Of a stretch of 32,000 nt of DNA, positions 7,364-23,591 are shown in pieces (position 1 is the first letter of the stretch; every line of letters starts with the position of its first letter). The translations under genes were made by a program, and so were the position numbers. The notes beneath the pieces were generated by a model. The model was not told where the DNA came from. It made no database searches and saw only the letters and a list, made by a program, of their open reading frames with translations. Source of the DNA: an uncultured Candidatus Saccharibacteria bacterium (GTDB taxonomy: Bacteria; Patescibacteriota; UBA1384; XYA2-FULL-43-10; 1-14-0-10-43-13); the NCBI GenBank assembly GCA_964543385.1, contig CAZIYE010000001.1, forward strand, positions 150,001-182,000, read 5' to 3'.

Positions 7364-7581
7364 GGTGTTCTCCCGCTGTATGGTGGCGACCCGCTCGATT
7401 GTGAATTTTTTTATTACCGAGCAAACAAGATAGAAAAGTGTAAATTCAGGCGCTCAAAAGCGCCGTTTAAGCGTAATTTCTACTCTCTTTGCTCAGTAAT
7501 ACTATTTAATTGTTAAGGTACTTTGTGCTCATATTCACCCTTTTAGGGTAAACAAAAGGCGACACTGTTCTGCATAACTCG

Positions 7582-7654
7582 ATAGGCGGAGGGGGAACCT
7601 ATTTCCCTGATAAATCAGGGAAGTTGAGCTATGCAGGACGCTGCCGCCTGCATA
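7582..7654 (-). promoter_or_regulatory. Three adjacent stem-loops within the long leader upstream of the island-1 gene
   Basis: Stem ATAGG/CCTAT at 7582-7602 has minus-strand loop UUCCCCCUCCG. Stem TTCCCTGA/TCAGGGAA at 7603-7622 has loop UUUA. Stem TATGCAGG/CCTGCATA at 7630-7654 has a 9-nt loop. GGCGG at 7586-7590 could alternatively pair with CCGCC at 7643-7647. Confidence 0.5.
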
Positions 7655-7840: not shown

Positions 7841-7865
7841 ATACGGCCGGAGGGGGGGGCCGTAT
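7841..7865 (-). other. GC-rich hairpin with a C-rich loop (ATACGGCC-CCCCCCUCC-GGCCGUAU on the minus strand)
   Basis: An 8-bp perfect stem at 7841-7848/7858-7865 with a 9-nt loop. It is flanked by 13-nt direct repeats at 7824-7836 and 7889-7901. Confidence 0.6.
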
Positions 7866-19293: not shown

Positions 19294-20586
19294 CTAAAGC
19301 GGCAGGACGATGACGTTTGAAACGCCAGGGCGGTAAGTGATCATCTCTGACCAATTCCGACCATCAGTTGAATATTTCAGATTATATTCATATGACACGA
19401 GGTTTCCATTCACACGCTCACCGATGGCAGCATTGTTTATAGGAATATCCCCAGGAGCATATGGACCGAAGACTCGCCCTTGCGGGTAAGCACGATCATA
19501 CAATCTAATCCACACCTTCTTTGAAGTGCGGAAGCAGTAGTTTCCATGGACCACTTCTGTTTGTTTCTGAGTGGTAACGGAAGACGATATGCCGGGTGCC
19601 GGCGCTTTGAGATACTCGATGACTTGCACCAGGGTTAACTGGTGATTGGCAACGAGTTGCCTTAAACGCTGAATCTCGGCCTCGGTTTTACCCGAGTTCC
19701 GAGCGACGACTTGAATCGCCTCCCAAACCTTCAAGTCAAAAGCTTCACAAGCAGCCACACGGGCTTCAAGATTGGCAATTTGGACAAGAAGACTGGAATC
19801 ATCGTAGGCAGGAACAGAAGTGATGCCTCCACCAGTCAGCCCAGTACCGGTACTACCCATCGCCTTGTCATTGGCAAGTAAGGTCTCGAAGACGAGCCCG
19901 TTACCACCATTGCCAGCGCGACGAAGCAGATCGGTCAAGTACTGAACTGAAGGAGCGGAACAGTTGGCAGGCCAACACTCCGTTTTGAAGCGGAGAGTGT
20001 CGACCATTGCTGACAGGTTAGTTTTTCCTGCCCACTTGATCTTGAAGAGGATCAAGTTTATAGCTTTGTCGTTGCGTTTTCCATCCTGGACCAACGCATA
20101 GAAACGGAAGCAATGCAGATCAGCACCAACAGCTACCTCAAGAGGCATCTCTAGGTACCAGCGCCCGCCAGCGTCCCGTTTGAGAACCAGCACACCCGGA
20201 GTTGTAAACGACCAGGTATTGGTCCTGCGATCATAGCTATACTCGAGCTTTTTCTCTAGCTCGCCTTGTGCAGCGACCATCGCCACCACCGGCATGTCAG
20301 CGAGGACGTTAGGGTATACCTTCATGGTTGCCCCAATCCCCACAGGAAATGTGCCGAGGTACGAGGTCTCTGCCTCGTCCCATTGCCAGGTGACTGCTTG
20401 CGCATAAGTCACCTGCACCTGGACTTTTCCACTGGTAACCTGCTGCGATGCCTGTTCAGTATAGACCGGACCGTCTAGGACGGCACCAGTTGCACCGAAT
20501 GGAGCAGCACTTGCTGGCGTGATTGCCAGCGCGCCAACCATTAAGGTCAGCAATACGAGGCCAATTACGGCCAGCGGGTTACGCAT
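19294..20586 (-). CDS. Island-3 orphan A: Sec-secreted protein with a beta-rich N-terminal part, a central coiled coil and a C-terminal beta-rich domain (430 aa)
   Basis: The ATG at 20586 is preceded by AAAGAGGAGGAACGCAG. Signal peptide MRNPLAVIGLVLLTLMVGALAITPASA followed by APFG. Heptad-like LLVQIANLEARVAACEAFDLKVWEAIQ...IQRLRQLVANHQLTLVQVIEYLK. Counted lines give 52-58% GC. Confidence 0.75.
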   Translation of the reverse strand: MRNPLAVIGLVLLTLMVGALAITPASAAPFGATGAVLDGPVYTEQASQQVTSGKVQVQVTYAQAVTWQWDEAETSYLGTFPVGIGATMKVYPNVLADMPVVAMVAAQGELEKKLEYSYDRRTNTWSFTTPGVLVLKRDAGGRWYLEMPLEVAVGADLHCFRFYALVQDGKRNDKAINLILFKIKWAGKTNLSAMVDTLRFKTECWPANCSAPSVQYLTDLLRRAGNGGNGLVFETLLANDKAMGSTGTGLTGGGITSVPAYDDSSLLVQIANLEARVAACEAFDLKVWEAIQVVARNSGKTEAEIQRLRQLVANHQLTLVQVIEYLKAPAPGISSSVTTQKQTEVVHGNYCFRTSKKVWIRLYDRAYPQGRVFGPYAPGDIPINNAAIGERVNGNLVSYEYNLKYSTDGRNWSEMITYRPGVSNVIVLPL

Positions 20587-20612
20587 CTGCGTTCCTCCTC
20601 TTTCATTTTTGG

Positions 20613-20643
20613 GGTACCTCTCGCCACCAGGCGAGGAGGTACC
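20613..20643 (-). promoter_or_regulatory. GC-rich hairpin in the 5' UTR, about 25 nt upstream of the island-3 RBS
   Basis: The minus strand reads GGUACCUCCUCGCC-UGGU-GGCGAGAGGUACC (13 bp with one bulge), followed by CCAAAAAUGAAAGAGGAGGAAC. Confidence 0.55.
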
Positions 20644-20944
20644 TGATTGCAAGAAAATTGAGACGATTGGATTGCTCCGATTTCGTCTGCAAGGAAGTAT
20701 TATTTATTCGAGATCAATTGATAGCTTTTATCTGCCTACTTCTAGCTATCACTCGAAGAATAAATTCTTCTATTGCAGCTGAAATTGCTTCTAAACATTT
20801 TCACTGATTTTTATTCTATTTGATTTTTAATTGCCATTTTTTAGCAATTCATAAATTATCTATAGTTGAAATAATTTATTTTTGTGAGATTTTATATATT
20901 TTACAATTTTTAAATATACTATTGTGACTTCAATCGCCTTTTGC

Positions 20945-21085
20945 TTTCTTAAATCCAACCAGGAAGAAGGCGAGAAGTGATAGAAGCTAACATGGCCAGG
21001 TCCACTTATTTTAAGGAACCTCTCTGCCGGTTAGCCGGAATGCCTATCACCCTAATACCCCTAAATCCCAGTCGGATTTAAGAAA
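20945..21085 (-). ncRNA. Candidate structured RNA domain closed by a perfect 12-bp helix, with a competing local helix
   Basis: TTTCTTAAATCC (20945-20956) is the exact reverse complement of GGATTTAAGAAA (21074-21085). The same GGATTTA can instead pair with TAAATCC at 21062-21068. Internal helices are GTGATAG/CTATCAC, CCGG-CUAA-CCGG and AGGU(U)CC/GGACCU. GCTAAC/GTTAGC has pseudoknot potential. Confidence 0.4.
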
Positions 21086-21221
21086 ACAAAAAAGGATCGT
21101 CAGCGATATATTTGGCACTTAAAGACCAATGATCGCCGCCCCATCCTTTTGTCCACCGCACATAGTATTCCTAAGTGTGGTAGTAATTAACCCCTTGTTA
21201 GCTTAGCGCTAACTTAACTAC
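21086..21221 (-). ncRNA. Candidate sRNA of about 137 nt, or first leader segment, running from a consensus promoter to an intrinsic terminator
   Basis: The predicted TSS is about 7 nt below the -10 at 21228. The 3' end is set by a long imperfect hairpin at 21090-21150 (helices AAAAGGAU, GCGAU and UUGG) followed by UUUUUUGUUUUCU. 5' hairpin GTTAGC-GCTAA-GCTAAC. No Rfam family recognised by eye. Confidence 0.4.
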
Positions 21222-21227
21222 TGACAA

Positions 21228-21256
21228 ATTTTAGCACCTTTGCTTGACTTTGTCAA
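21228..21256 (-). promoter_or_regulatory. Near-consensus sigma-70 promoter (TTGACA-17-TAAAAT) just downstream of the dus stop
   Basis: On the minus strand the -35 is at 21251-21256 and the -10 at 21228-21233, with an exact 17-nt spacer. It shares the extended context ATTGACAAA with promoter P2 at 7796-7801. Confidence 0.6.
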
Positions 21257-21268
21257 TAGTTTATGGCC

Positions 21269-22240
21269 TTATAATTGGTCCACGACCCGACTGACGTCTC
21301 GTAAATCAACAATAGAAACTGCCTCTTTGCGCAGTTCCTTAGCTCCAGGAAACCCTTTCAAATAAGAGAGAAGGTGTTTTCTAAACTCTACAATGCCAAG
21401 CTCTCCTTTCGTCTCAAAGGCAAGCTTGGCATGGAGAGGGATTATTGTCTTTAATTCATCTAGTTCGATCTCATCTCGAGAAAATATCCAGGGCCTACCA
21501 AAAGTAGCTTGCCCGATCGCACAACCATCTATTTGAACACCAAATTTTGAGTATTGAACATCAGAGATTGATCTGAGACTACCGTTTCCAATCACAGTAA
21601 GATTGGGCAACATTTTCTTGACCTCATAAATATTATCCCAATCAGCATTGCCTGAAAATCCCTGCTTGTATGTTCGTCCATGCACTATGAGAGCGTCAAT
21701 TCCGGCGTTCACCAAAACCGGCGCGAATTCGAGTATTTGATCTTGATTATCCCAACCAAGCCTTGTTTTCACCGAAACTGGTAAATTAGTATTATTCTTG
21801 ACAGCCGCAACTATTTCTGCCGCTAATTTTGGGTATTTCATCAAAGCCGCACCGTGATCGCTACCAACAACTTTTCTAGCAGGACAACCCATATTTATAT
21901 CAATTCCGTCTGGTTTGAGATTTTTTGTGATCCAACTAGAAGCAAAGGCAAACTTTTCCGGAAATTTGCCAAATAGTTGAATAGCAATCGGACGCTCTTT
22001 TTCAACAAACTTTAGCATTTCCAAGGTCTCATCTCTCCCCTTCTTCGATTGCCAGATTCCTGCCTCATCCTTAAACCAGTTTTTTGCATGATAGAAGATT
22101 GCATCGGCCGAAACCAACTCCGTTATTACAACGTCAGCACCAAAGCTACGACAAAGAGTACGAAAAGCAGAGTCAGTGTATCCTGCCATCGGTGCTAGAA
22201 CTTTTATTGGTCTATTTAGTTCTTTCCAAAAGTTAGCCAT
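21269..22240 (-). CDS. dus: tRNA-dihydrouridine synthase
   Basis: Contains APMAGYTDSAFRTLCRSFGADVV, IDINMGCPARKV, VKTRLGW and VHGRT blocks. Overlaps cysS by 8 nt. Confidence 0.88.
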   Translation of the reverse strand: MANFWKELNRPIKVLAPMAGYTDSAFRTLCRSFGADVVITELVSADAIFYHAKNWFKDEAGIWQSKKGRDETLEMLKFVEKERPIAIQLFGKFPEKFAFASSWITKNLKPDGIDINMGCPARKVVGSDHGAALMKYPKLAAEIVAAVKNNTNLPVSVKTRLGWDNQDQILEFAPVLVNAGIDALIVHGRTYKQGFSGNADWDNIYEVKKMLPNLTVIGNGSLRSISDVQYSKFGVQIDGCAIGQATFGRPWIFSRDEIELDELKTIIPLHAKLAFETKGELGIVEFRKHLLSYLKGFPGAKELRKEAVSIVDLRDVSRVVDQL

Positions 22241-23591
22241 TTATCTTCTCTAACTTATACTCATTGGCACCAAGATCTTCTATTTGCCAGCCCAGTGAAT
22301 TAATTTCAGATCTTAGATCATCTGATGCCTTGAAATCTTTATTTTCTCTCGCCGTCTTCCTTTGCTGTGCTAATTTGGCAATTTCAGCCGGTATACTAAC
22401 GACTCTTTCGGTTCCTAGATTTAATCCCAAAACAGCATCCATTAGAATAGCAGTTACCCTCTTATCTTCGCCTGAAATATTTTCATCCCTAAGTAATGAC
22501 CACAGAACAGCTAAAGCTTCTGAGATACTAAGATCATTTGATATCTTTTCTTTGAATAGATCTATATGTTCTTGGGATACTTTGCCATTTTCTTTTGGCA
22601 AGTCATCAATGATTCTAACCAATCTTTCTCTTGTGTTCTTTGCTGACTCCAAGCCCTCCCAAGTGAAATTCAATTTGCTGCGATAGTGAGCACCGATAAC
22701 AAGATAACGAAAATCAAGTGGTGAAAAACCTTTCTCCTCCAAATCCGATAATCGGTAAAAATTACCAAGACTCTTTGACATTTTCTTGCCATCCACTAAA
22801 AGGTGTTCATTGTGAACCCAATAATTAACAAATTTCTTTCCACTTCTAGCCTCCGACTGAGCAATTTCATTCTCATGATGAGGGAAAATATTATCTACGC
22901 CCCCAGTATGAATATCTATCGTCTCGCCAAGCTTGTCCATCGACATTGCTGAACACTCTATGTGCCATCCTGGTCTGCCCTTGCCAAGTGACGTTTCCCA
23001 GAAAATATCACCATCATTTTCGTCCCAAGCTTTCCAGAGCGCAAAGTCGGAAGGATTCTCTTTATCATATTCATCTTGCGCTACTCTAGCCCCAACTTTT
23101 ATCTCCCTGTTTTCAAGTCCCGATAATTTACCATAATTTTTGAACTTAGATATTGAGAAATAGATAGAGCCGTCATTGGCCTTATAAGCGAAGCCCTTTT
23201 GAAGTAGATCTTCTATAAAGCTGACCATTTTTTCAATATATTGGGTCGCCCTAGTAATATTTTCAGACGATGGTTTCTCAATATTTAATTTATCCAGATC
23301 AGCAAAAAAAGACTCCTCGTACATTTTCGTCAGTTCGTCGAACTTTTTATGGTCTCCTCCTGATCGGTTAATTGTCTTATCGTCAACATCAGTAATATTC
23401 ATCACTCTTCTAACATCAAAATTGTTGAATTTTAGTGTTCGATAGAGCAAATCGTCACAGATATATTTTCTTAGATTTCCAATATGAGCCACATCATAAA
23501 CAGTTGGTCCACAAGTGTAGATTCCAACTTTTTGATCTCCTATCGATTTGAATTCCTCTATCTGTTTTGTAAGCGTATTATAAATCTTCAT
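22233..23591 (-). CDS. cysS: Cysteine--tRNA ligase
   Basis: Class I signatures HIGN and KMSKS, plus GWHIECS and the typical CysRS N-terminus MKIYNTLT..YTCGPTVYD. Confidence 0.93.
   Translation of the reverse strand: MKIYNTLTKQIEEFKSIGDQKVGIYTCGPTVYDVAHIGNLRKYICDDLLYRTLKFNNFDVRRVMNITDVDDKTINRSGGDHKKFDELTKMYEESFFADLDKLNIEKPSSENITRATQYIEKMVSFIEDLLQKGFAYKANDGSIYFSISKFKNYGKLSGLENREIKVGARVAQDEYDKENPSDFALWKAWDENDGDIFWETSLGKGRPGWHIECSAMSMDKLGETIDIHTGGVDNIFPHHENEIAQSEARSGKKFVNYWVHNEHLLVDGKKMSKSLGNFYRLSDLEEKGFSPLDFRYLVIGAHYRSKLNFTWEGLESAKNTRERLVRIIDDLPKENGKVSQEHIDLFKEKISNDLSISEALAVLWSLLRDENISGEDKRVTAILMDAVLGLNLGTERVVSIPAEIAKLAQQRKTARENKDFKASDDLRSEINSLGWQIEDLGANEYKLEKING

Follow-up and report, generated by a model that had tools for sequence, protein, structure and literature searches.

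A conserved rod-shaped RNA upstream of secreted-protein genes in one class of Patescibacteriota

The DNA analysed here, a stretch of 32,000 nucleotides (nt) called the window hereafter, comes from an uncultured Candidatus Saccharibacteria bacterium (GTDB lineage Bacteria; Patescibacteriota; UBA1384; XYA2-FULL-43-10; 1-14-0-10-43-13) and corresponds to positions 150,001 to 182,000 of the forward strand of contig CAZIYE010000001.1 (GenBank assembly GCA_964543385.1). We found that the non-coding gap of about 680 nt that follows the dus gene on the minus strand contains a conserved RNA folded as an unbranched, irregular hairpin, which we call the rod. It represents a real, previously uncatalogued RNA family that is absent from Rfam 15. 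The anatomy of the locus (a promoter, the lack of a second promoter and a downstream open reading frame, ORF) suggests that the rod is a 5'-leader element, and we give an even chance to the more specific reading that it is a conserved leader RNA of a secreted-protein operon, acting in cis and recognised by a protein. A first-pass annotation, made by a model from the letters of the stretch, had described this region as a candidate small RNA (sRNA) or terminated leader next to a riboswitch-like domain. The coordinates of the features, given as positions in the window, are collected in Table 1.

The segment from about 21225 to 20930 (296 nt) had a predicted folding energy of -118.8 kcal/mol, as compared with -78.9 +/- 5.2 kcal/mol for shuffled sequences (z = -7.7), and its fold comprised two small hairpins, a long three-segment hairpin and a closed domain, the rod. 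The base of the rod, helix P1, is made of the two arms of an inverted repeat of 26 nt each (20939-20964 and 21066-21091), which are 85% complementary as DNA and of which the remaining positions form G-U pairs on the minus strand. The 12-bp closing helix described in the first-pass annotation is therefore real but only part of a helix of 25-26 bp, when G-U pairs are counted. The three internal helices that it had pointed out (GUGAUAG/CUAUCAC, GCUAAC/GUUAGC and AGGUUC/GGACCU) were all found and all covary. The second of these had been proposed to form a pseudoknot; it turned out to be a plain nested helix, P3, and the CCGG...CCGG hairpin that the pseudoknot would need was absent from most relatives. 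Between the helices, the rod contains two-sided internal loops of about 4x3 and 6x4 nt and a 7-nt one-sided bulge, the latter between P2 and P3, and it is capped by the apical loop CUUAAAAUAAGU, which was kept within the order. Its near-invariant core comprises GaCUGGGAUUUnGGG (5' strand) and CCUUCUUCCUGGuUGG (3' strand), in which several positions are fixed as wobble pairs, U-G in 44/44 sequences and G-U in 38/44. At the top of P1, a near-invariant GCUGGGA is paired with UCCUGGCU and includes invariant C-G, U-G and G-U pairs. In the model-fitted alignment 92.9% of the P1 cells were paired, and the lower 17 pairs of this helix covaried freely.

That the closed domain is genuine, as had been supposed, was established by covariation among its homologues. 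An RNAalifold consensus derived from 13 sequences contained 55 pairs, 26 of them with compensatory changes. When 44 homologues were considered, 92.1% of the cells formed standard pairs and double changes were observed in 48 of the 55 pairs. None of 500 shuffled controls of these 44 sequences reached the observed values, and pairing fell to 39-58% when the partners were slid by 1-3 columns. The covariation support of the rod family is as strong as that of curated Rfam families. The RNA strand is the minus strand, as indicated by the fixed wobble pairs and by the score of the covariance model, which amounted to 161.6 bits on the minus strand versus 29.4 bits on the plus strand.

When 40 relatives were searched at the DNA level, positions 20939-21096 of the window were matched in different genera at 72-79% identity. 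Public records list relatives under the names Candidatus Berkelbacteria, Saccharibacteria or Patescibacteria group. With a covariance model (R1), exactly one full-length copy was detected in 36 of 44 genomes of the order, and the model also picked up weaker copies, 114-163 nt long, in further families of the class. Another covariance model (R2) found one copy per genome in 85 of the 151 sampled genomes of the class, and no rod in 144 genomes from other classes of the phylum. In the other families the distal part was reduced to a single hairpin, for a total of 104-120 nt, and the core was retained, with GGGAUUnGGGAGAG on one strand and the pyrimidine-rich CCCUCCUUCCCUUUUCCUGG on the other. Rod members as a whole measured 104-163 nt.

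The first-pass annotation had been unable to match the domain to a known riboswitch class, and scans with Rfam models did not find one either. No match was obtained in the whole window at the gathering score (Rfam 15), only chance matches such as ceN41 and U6 appeared over 1.3 kb at E <= 10, and nothing was found at the rod in 20 homologous loci at E <= 1. ARAGORN detected no transfer RNA or transfer-messenger RNA (tmRNA) in the window, and the possibility that the rod is RNase P RNA or tmRNA was rejected because both are located elsewhere in the genome. We also rejected 6S RNA (RF00013), for which there was no model match in the region (gathering score or E <= 10), in the whole genome (E <= 1) or in the 20 homologous loci (E <= 1). 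As features of 6S RNA we took a central bubble of about 10-15 nt per strand between two long helical arms and a total length of about 150-200 nt; a large central bubble is lacking in the rod, and its members of 104-120 nt with a single short distal hairpin, of which there are many, fall below that length. A literature search on 6S RNA or structured RNAs in the candidate phyla radiation (CPR) or Saccharibacteria brought up nothing relevant.

Signal recognition particle (SRP) RNA (RF00169/RF01854) was considered because none was detectable in the genome. The SRP RNA models gave no match in this genome nor in 61 genomes of the class. The genome (G000, 4 contigs) also contained no SRP54-type GTPase (Ffh, FtsY; PF00448) and no Ffh M domain (PF02978), and searches with tblastn and phmmer, using a genuine Ffh query, found nothing in it. 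Since the genome is devoid of these proteins, the rod is not SRP RNA. In 60 further genomes of the class, the sole genuine SRP54 match was on a short contig of G091 and is probably a contamination; there was no genuine match in the 77 genomes of the phylum sample that belong to other classes, nor any match with E <= 1e-10 in the 80 other genomes of that sample. For Parcubacteria, published work describes the loss of ffh and ffs (PMC4508563).

The leader begins with a promoter that starts 13 nt past the dus stop and scored 11/12 in a promoter scan, being the sole promoter-like site on the minus strand of 20300-21600. This is the near-consensus TTGACA-17-TAAAAT (-10 at 21233-21228, with an upstream TG) to which the first-pass annotation had drawn attention. 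Of 43 homologous loci, 42 similarly have a TTGACA-17-TAnnnT promoter 17-220 nt 5' of the rod, in most cases including the TG of an extended -10. The part of the leader that directly follows the predicted start aligned only with the same-genus genome G001 (79% over the whole 321 nt), and other genera aligned only from the rod onwards.

Between promoter and rod stands a terminator-like hairpin (AAAAGGAUGGGG...GAUCCUUUUUUGUUUU, about -19 kcal/mol), which corresponds to the three-segment hairpin with a U-tract reported previously. It was not called by a simple terminator scan, because its loop and stem exceed the limits of the scan. Compared with simpler versions in relatives it is enlarged by an inserted sub-hairpin, and its U-tract also serves as the 5' strand of P1, both here and in part of family f1. 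The promoter-to-terminator unit that had been proposed recurs in relatives: a count by hand gave about 27 loci, belonging to several families, in which a simpler hairpin of the form AAAAGGAGnGGGAnCUCCUUUUUUG, with a Shine-Dalgarno-like G-rich 5' arm and flanking A- and U-tracts, separates promoter and rod. In many relatives its stem has only 4-7 bp (-2 to -8 kcal/mol), a low stability for a terminator, and f28, f13 and further families with a rod lack the hairpin. Its role may be to attenuate transcription, to produce a short leader RNA or to serve as a binding site. A leader peptide in this region was rejected, as the AUG is not conserved. There is rough complementarity between the G-rich arm and the loops of an sRNA pair in the window, which are C-rich (CCCCCCCCUCC, about 7843-7860, and UUCCCCCUCC, about 7580-7600), and an sRNA-leader interaction is possible.

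The first gene behind the leader encodes a protein of 430 amino acids that belongs to no Pfam family and has only 10 homologues among 5.8 billion proteins; its AlphaFold2 model was too poor to use (predicted local distance difference test, pLDDT, 49.7). A co-oriented ORF of 297-464 amino acids with a classical signal peptide was found 3' of the rod in 57 of the 62 loci that had enough flank, at a median distance of 132 nt. In compact forms of the locus, the start codon lies 28-100 nt past the rod, directly after a good Shine-Dalgarno sequence, and no terminator was seen between rod and start codon in those examined. Reading the sequences by eye, we noticed no terminator past the rod in the majority of loci, and in 59 of 63 loci no second promoter scoring at least 10/12 was present between rod and ORF (450 nt after the rod scanned). 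The downstream proteins have no Pfam domain, and those of different families could not be aligned and clustered only partly; their genes encode hypervariable orphan secreted proteins and do not make up a coherent metabolic or transport set. The upstream neighbour of the rod varies, being dus in many families and tmRNA in family f28, and the secreted-protein gene stays, which links the RNA to that gene. The downstream protein is probably a major surface protein and a good candidate for an S-layer-like protein of these episymbionts.

In the reading that we favour, transcription would start at the near-consensus promoter just past dus, and the polymerase would pass the Shine-Dalgarno-like, terminator-like hairpin, which would let only part of the transcripts through, before making the rod as the 5' part of the secreted-protein mRNA. 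The rod would then act in cis, post-transcriptionally: recognised by a protein, it would influence processing, stability or translation (candidate roles are those of a 5' stabiliser and of a double-strand site of the RNase III type), and would set the expression of the probable major surface protein. RNase III is encoded in the genome. A protein partner is suggested by the constant 25-bp helix and the invariant wobble core, as these fit a double-strand-specific or sequence-specific protein, and the invariant C-G, U-G and G-U pairs atop P1, which are typical of a protein recognition site, are a hint in the same sense.

Several points weigh against this reading. The transcription start, the read-through of the hairpin and the co-transcription with the ORF are all predictions from sequence. 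The protein partner is putative, and one candidate, CsrA, was ruled out, together with the idea of a CsrA-binding site, because the genome has no CsrA gene. The rod of family f13 has a GC-clamped base (GCGC...GCGC) with a U-run behind it (loci L073, L074, L081, L083 and L086), and L074 has in addition a separate strong terminator after the rod. A second TTGACA-17 promoter was found between rod and ORF in the f25 loci L072, L075 and L187, and a second strong promoter after the rod is also present in L057, which belongs to the window's own family, f1. The RNA of f13, f25 and L057 may consequently be an independent transcription unit. Its conservation, which far exceeds that of the protein encoded behind it, resembles that of a trans-acting housekeeping RNA. 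Finally, the predicted 5' single-stranded tail measured 0-17 nt in the folded compact forms with a predicted promoter, so that pure 5'-end protection is not uniformly supported, being possible in some members and not in all.

The remainder of the leader, downstream of the rod, is more variable. The AT-rich spacer mentioned in the first-pass annotation is present, and about 150 nt of it are missing from the same-genus genome G001 (locus L038), where the rod runs almost directly into a GCUGCAAUAGAAGAAUUUAUUCUUCGAG element that is found at about 20750-20785 in the window; the spacer looks like a recent insertion or expansion. A leader hairpin further down, GCAGACGAAAUCGGAGCAAUCCAAUCGUCUC, has an almost identical counterpart in L038 and can still be recognised in L040. 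The GC-rich hairpin before the ribosome-binding site (RBS), another element that had been noticed previously, is likewise there and is retained in L038. Its 5' arm, ACCUCCUC, is anti-Shine-Dalgarno-like: in an inverted repeat (I17) that joins 20591-20600 with 20633-20642, it is complementary to the RBS GAGGAGGAAC at 9 of 10 positions. ACCUCCUC could pair either with the RBS or in its own hairpin, in which case the RBS would be free, and is thus a possible local translational switch.

The genes around the locus are all on the minus strand, in the order topA, recR, cysS (22233-23591) and dus (21269-22240), the latter with a Pfam Dus match (E 4.7e-68), and the gap is followed on its 3' side by GC-rich ORFs for signal-peptide proteins without Pfam domains. 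The order cysS-dus-RNA-secreted protein was conserved in many genera of the order, and dus was still 5' of the RNA in family f25 (G093). In family f28, the rod was not after dus and lay within a few hundred nt of a tmRNA match (L077, 698-835; L078, 1789-1926). These short tmRNA matches scored 58-75 bits over 138 nt and may represent parts of a tmRNA that is split in two or unusual in some other way.

Table 1. Features of the leader region and of the first gene behind it (positions in the window)
Feature	Position	Strand	Description
Sigma-70-type promoter	21228..21256	-	-35 TTGACA 21256-21251, 17-nt spacer, extended -10 TGcTAAAAT 21236-21228; predicted start about 21221-21222
5' leader part	21151..21221	-	Two small hairpins (GUUAGCGCUAAGCUAAC; CCACAC...GUGCGGUGG), lineage-specific
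Terminator-like hairpin	21083..21150	-	A-tract, G-rich Shine-Dalgarno-like 5' arm AAAAGGAUGGGG, 3' arm GAUCC, then UUUUUUGUUUU
AAAAGGAGnGGGAnCUCCUUUUUUG hairpin, examples	21140-21150 in the window; loci L040, L049, L059, L069, L071, L177, L180, L186, L190		5' of the rod
Conserved rod-shaped RNA	20937..21093	-	About 157 nt, unbranched irregular hairpin; helices P1, GGG/CCU, P2, P3, P4
P1 (basal helix)	21091-21066 with 20964-20939	-	25 modelled pairs; 25-26 bp counting G-U
GGG/CCU helix	Between P1 and P2	-	3 bp, after a small internal loop
P2	About 21053-21044 with 20983-20974	-	
P3	21035-21026 with 20997-20986	-	
P4	21021-21016 with 21003-20998	-	
AT-rich spacer	20790..20935	-	Extremely AT-rich, mostly a lineage-specific insertion in the leader
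Leader hairpin GCAGACGAAAUCGGAGCAAUCCAAUCGUCUC	20660..20690	-	Nearly identical in L038, recognisable in L040
GC-rich hairpin, RBS and start codon	20584..20643	-	Hairpin 20643-20613; RBS GAGGAGG 20600-20594; ATG 20586-20584
First gene behind the leader	19294..20586	-	430-amino-acid orphan with signal peptide, GC-rich 'island 3'

Some of the points raised above would be accounted for if the rod were a stand-alone, trans-acting sRNA, i.e. a lineage-specific housekeeping or regulatory RNA, possibly a functional analogue of 6S RNA or a protein scaffold. It would then simply share a transcript with the next gene, or lie 5' of it, and be released by processing or by its own termination. It is a single-copy RNA, nearly universal in the class and much more conserved than the downstream protein, it has its own consensus promoter, and it adjoins another RNA gene, tmRNA, in f28. 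The clamped P1 with U-run or terminator of f13, the second promoter of f25 and the lack of a recognisable 6S RNA in the genome are in agreement with this possibility, and the 6S RNA of Escherichia coli is likewise co-transcribed with a downstream ORF (ssrS-ygfA). Yet the lack, in most loci, of a visible terminator or of a second strong promoter after the rod, and its near-invariant link to a signal-peptide gene despite changing upstream neighbours, speak for a leader, and a 6S-type RNA in particular is at odds with the small internal loops, the short members and the silence of RF00013 even at E 10. We therefore regard a stand-alone RNA as a serious though rather doubtful possibility. We give a much slimmer chance to the idea that the functional product is a short promoter-to-terminator sRNA of about 138 nt (about 21221 to about 21085) ending in the G-rich, Shine-Dalgarno-like hairpin, with the rod as secondary read-through. 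Such an sRNA could act on the C-rich-loop sRNAs of this genome (CCCCCCCCUCC and UUCCCCCUCC in the window's pair) by titrating them, could be a target of theirs, or could bind 30S subunits. A strong promoter, a stable hairpin and a U6GU4 tract do make a plausible unit, and an AAGGAG(n)GGG...CUCCUUUUUUG hairpin recurs at the same place in the loci counted above, but the sequence from start to hairpin is conserved only within the genus, the stem is weak in many relatives, and the hairpin is missing from several families that have the rod.

The riboswitch or attenuator proposed in the first-pass annotation, in which alternative pairings by a terminator would switch the operon in response to a ligand bound by the domain, is in our opinion similarly improbable. 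What recommends it is a conserved, covarying domain with highly conserved unpaired nucleotides in a 5' leader, close to a terminator-like hairpin and followed near the RBS by an anti-Shine-Dalgarno-like arm with two pairing options (I17). The terminator-like hairpin, however, is 5' of the rod and not after it, and would be transcribed and act before the domain exists; hence the rod cannot be the sensor that decides on that termination. As to the exclusive pairing, the TAAATCC/GGATTTA alternative exists in the window but forms in only 21 of 61 homologues, and the competing UAAAUCC/GGAUUUA hairpin is largely a by-product of the conserved GGGAUUU, which resembles the 3' strand of P1. With the pseudoknot reduced to a nested helix, what is left is an unbranched rod with a 25-bp closing helix, unmatched by any Rfam riboswitch and placed before orphan secreted proteins that have no metabolic theme, and ligand sensing by the rod appears unlikely. 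The last alternative is that the inverted repeat is an element at the DNA level (a recombination site, the end of a mobile element or a protein-binding palindrome), as a 26-nt imperfect inverted repeat around a 101-nt core might suggest. We attach next to no probability to it: where the arms of the repeat are mismatched, G-U pairs arise on just one of the strands, the covariance model scores far higher on the minus strand, four further helices inside the repeat covary, and there is one copy of the element per genome, in a syntenic position. Strand asymmetry and covariation together effectively refute this reading.

CPR bacteria, or Patescibacteria, are a large and almost uncultured part of bacterial diversity, for which very few non-coding RNAs have been described to our knowledge. 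More than half of the genomes sampled from its class carry the rod, each in a single copy, and it is absent from Rfam 15. Throughout the class, its leader can serve to flag the gene for a fast-evolving orphan protein that is exported, also in genomes where this protein is unrecognisable by sequence. The invariant wobble core points to a putative RNA-binding partner, and raises the question of how cells without SRP control their main exported protein. A more ambitious proposal is that the Shine-Dalgarno-like hairpin and the rod together form a dedicated RNA device for the dominant, hypervariable surface protein, or else that the rod is a class-specific housekeeping RNA with a global, 6S-like role; this is speculative, and we rate its likelihood as low. 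The device could work by having the rod recruit a specific protein or the ribosome, thereby coupling synthesis, mRNA fate or membrane targeting of one exported protein. Either version, if true, would add a new class to the functional RNAs and give access to the cell-surface biology of CPR bacteria.

When compared with known systems, the rod resembles riboswitches and attenuators in being a conserved structured domain of a 5' leader, with a terminator-like hairpin and a Shine-Dalgarno/anti-Shine-Dalgarno option nearby. It differs from them in that the terminator precedes the domain, the alternative pairing is not conserved, the structure is unbranched and the downstream genes have no metabolic theme. 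With bacterial SRP (4.5S) RNA it shares a single-copy, hairpin-shaped form of about 110-160 nt, but not the GNRA tetraloop and the domain IV loops, nor any Rfam match. Like 6S RNA, it is a single-copy rod behind a strong promoter that can precede an ORF and be co-transcribed with it; unlike 6S RNA, it lacks a large central bubble, measures 104-163 nt and is tightly linked to one gene family.

Further parallels are with leaders that govern the fate of the mRNA that they precede. RNase III-processed leader hairpins are known from the E. coli rnc and pnp leaders and from the R1.1 signal of phage T7. The rod is similarly an irregular hairpin in a predicted mRNA leader, with at least about two helix turns and internal loops, in a genome that has an RNase III gene; RNase III sites, however, are not usually conserved in sequence, and the gene behind the rod is not a ribonuclease gene. 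Structured leaders also precede the genes of abundant exported proteins, as in the 5' untranslated region of E. coli ompA, Lactobacillus slpA, Bacillus subtilis aprE and the STAB-SD of Bacillus thuringiensis cryIIIA. The present locus has in common with these stabilising leaders a strong promoter, a long leader and a stable 5'-proximal stem-loop before a gene for a secreted or surface protein, as well as a Shine-Dalgarno-like sequence far 5' of the real RBS. In contrast with such leaders, which are species- or genus-specific, the rod has been kept in sequence and structure throughout a class in which the protein has diverged beyond recognition, and it carries an invariant core of internal loops and wobble pairs that a mere stabilising hairpin would not need.

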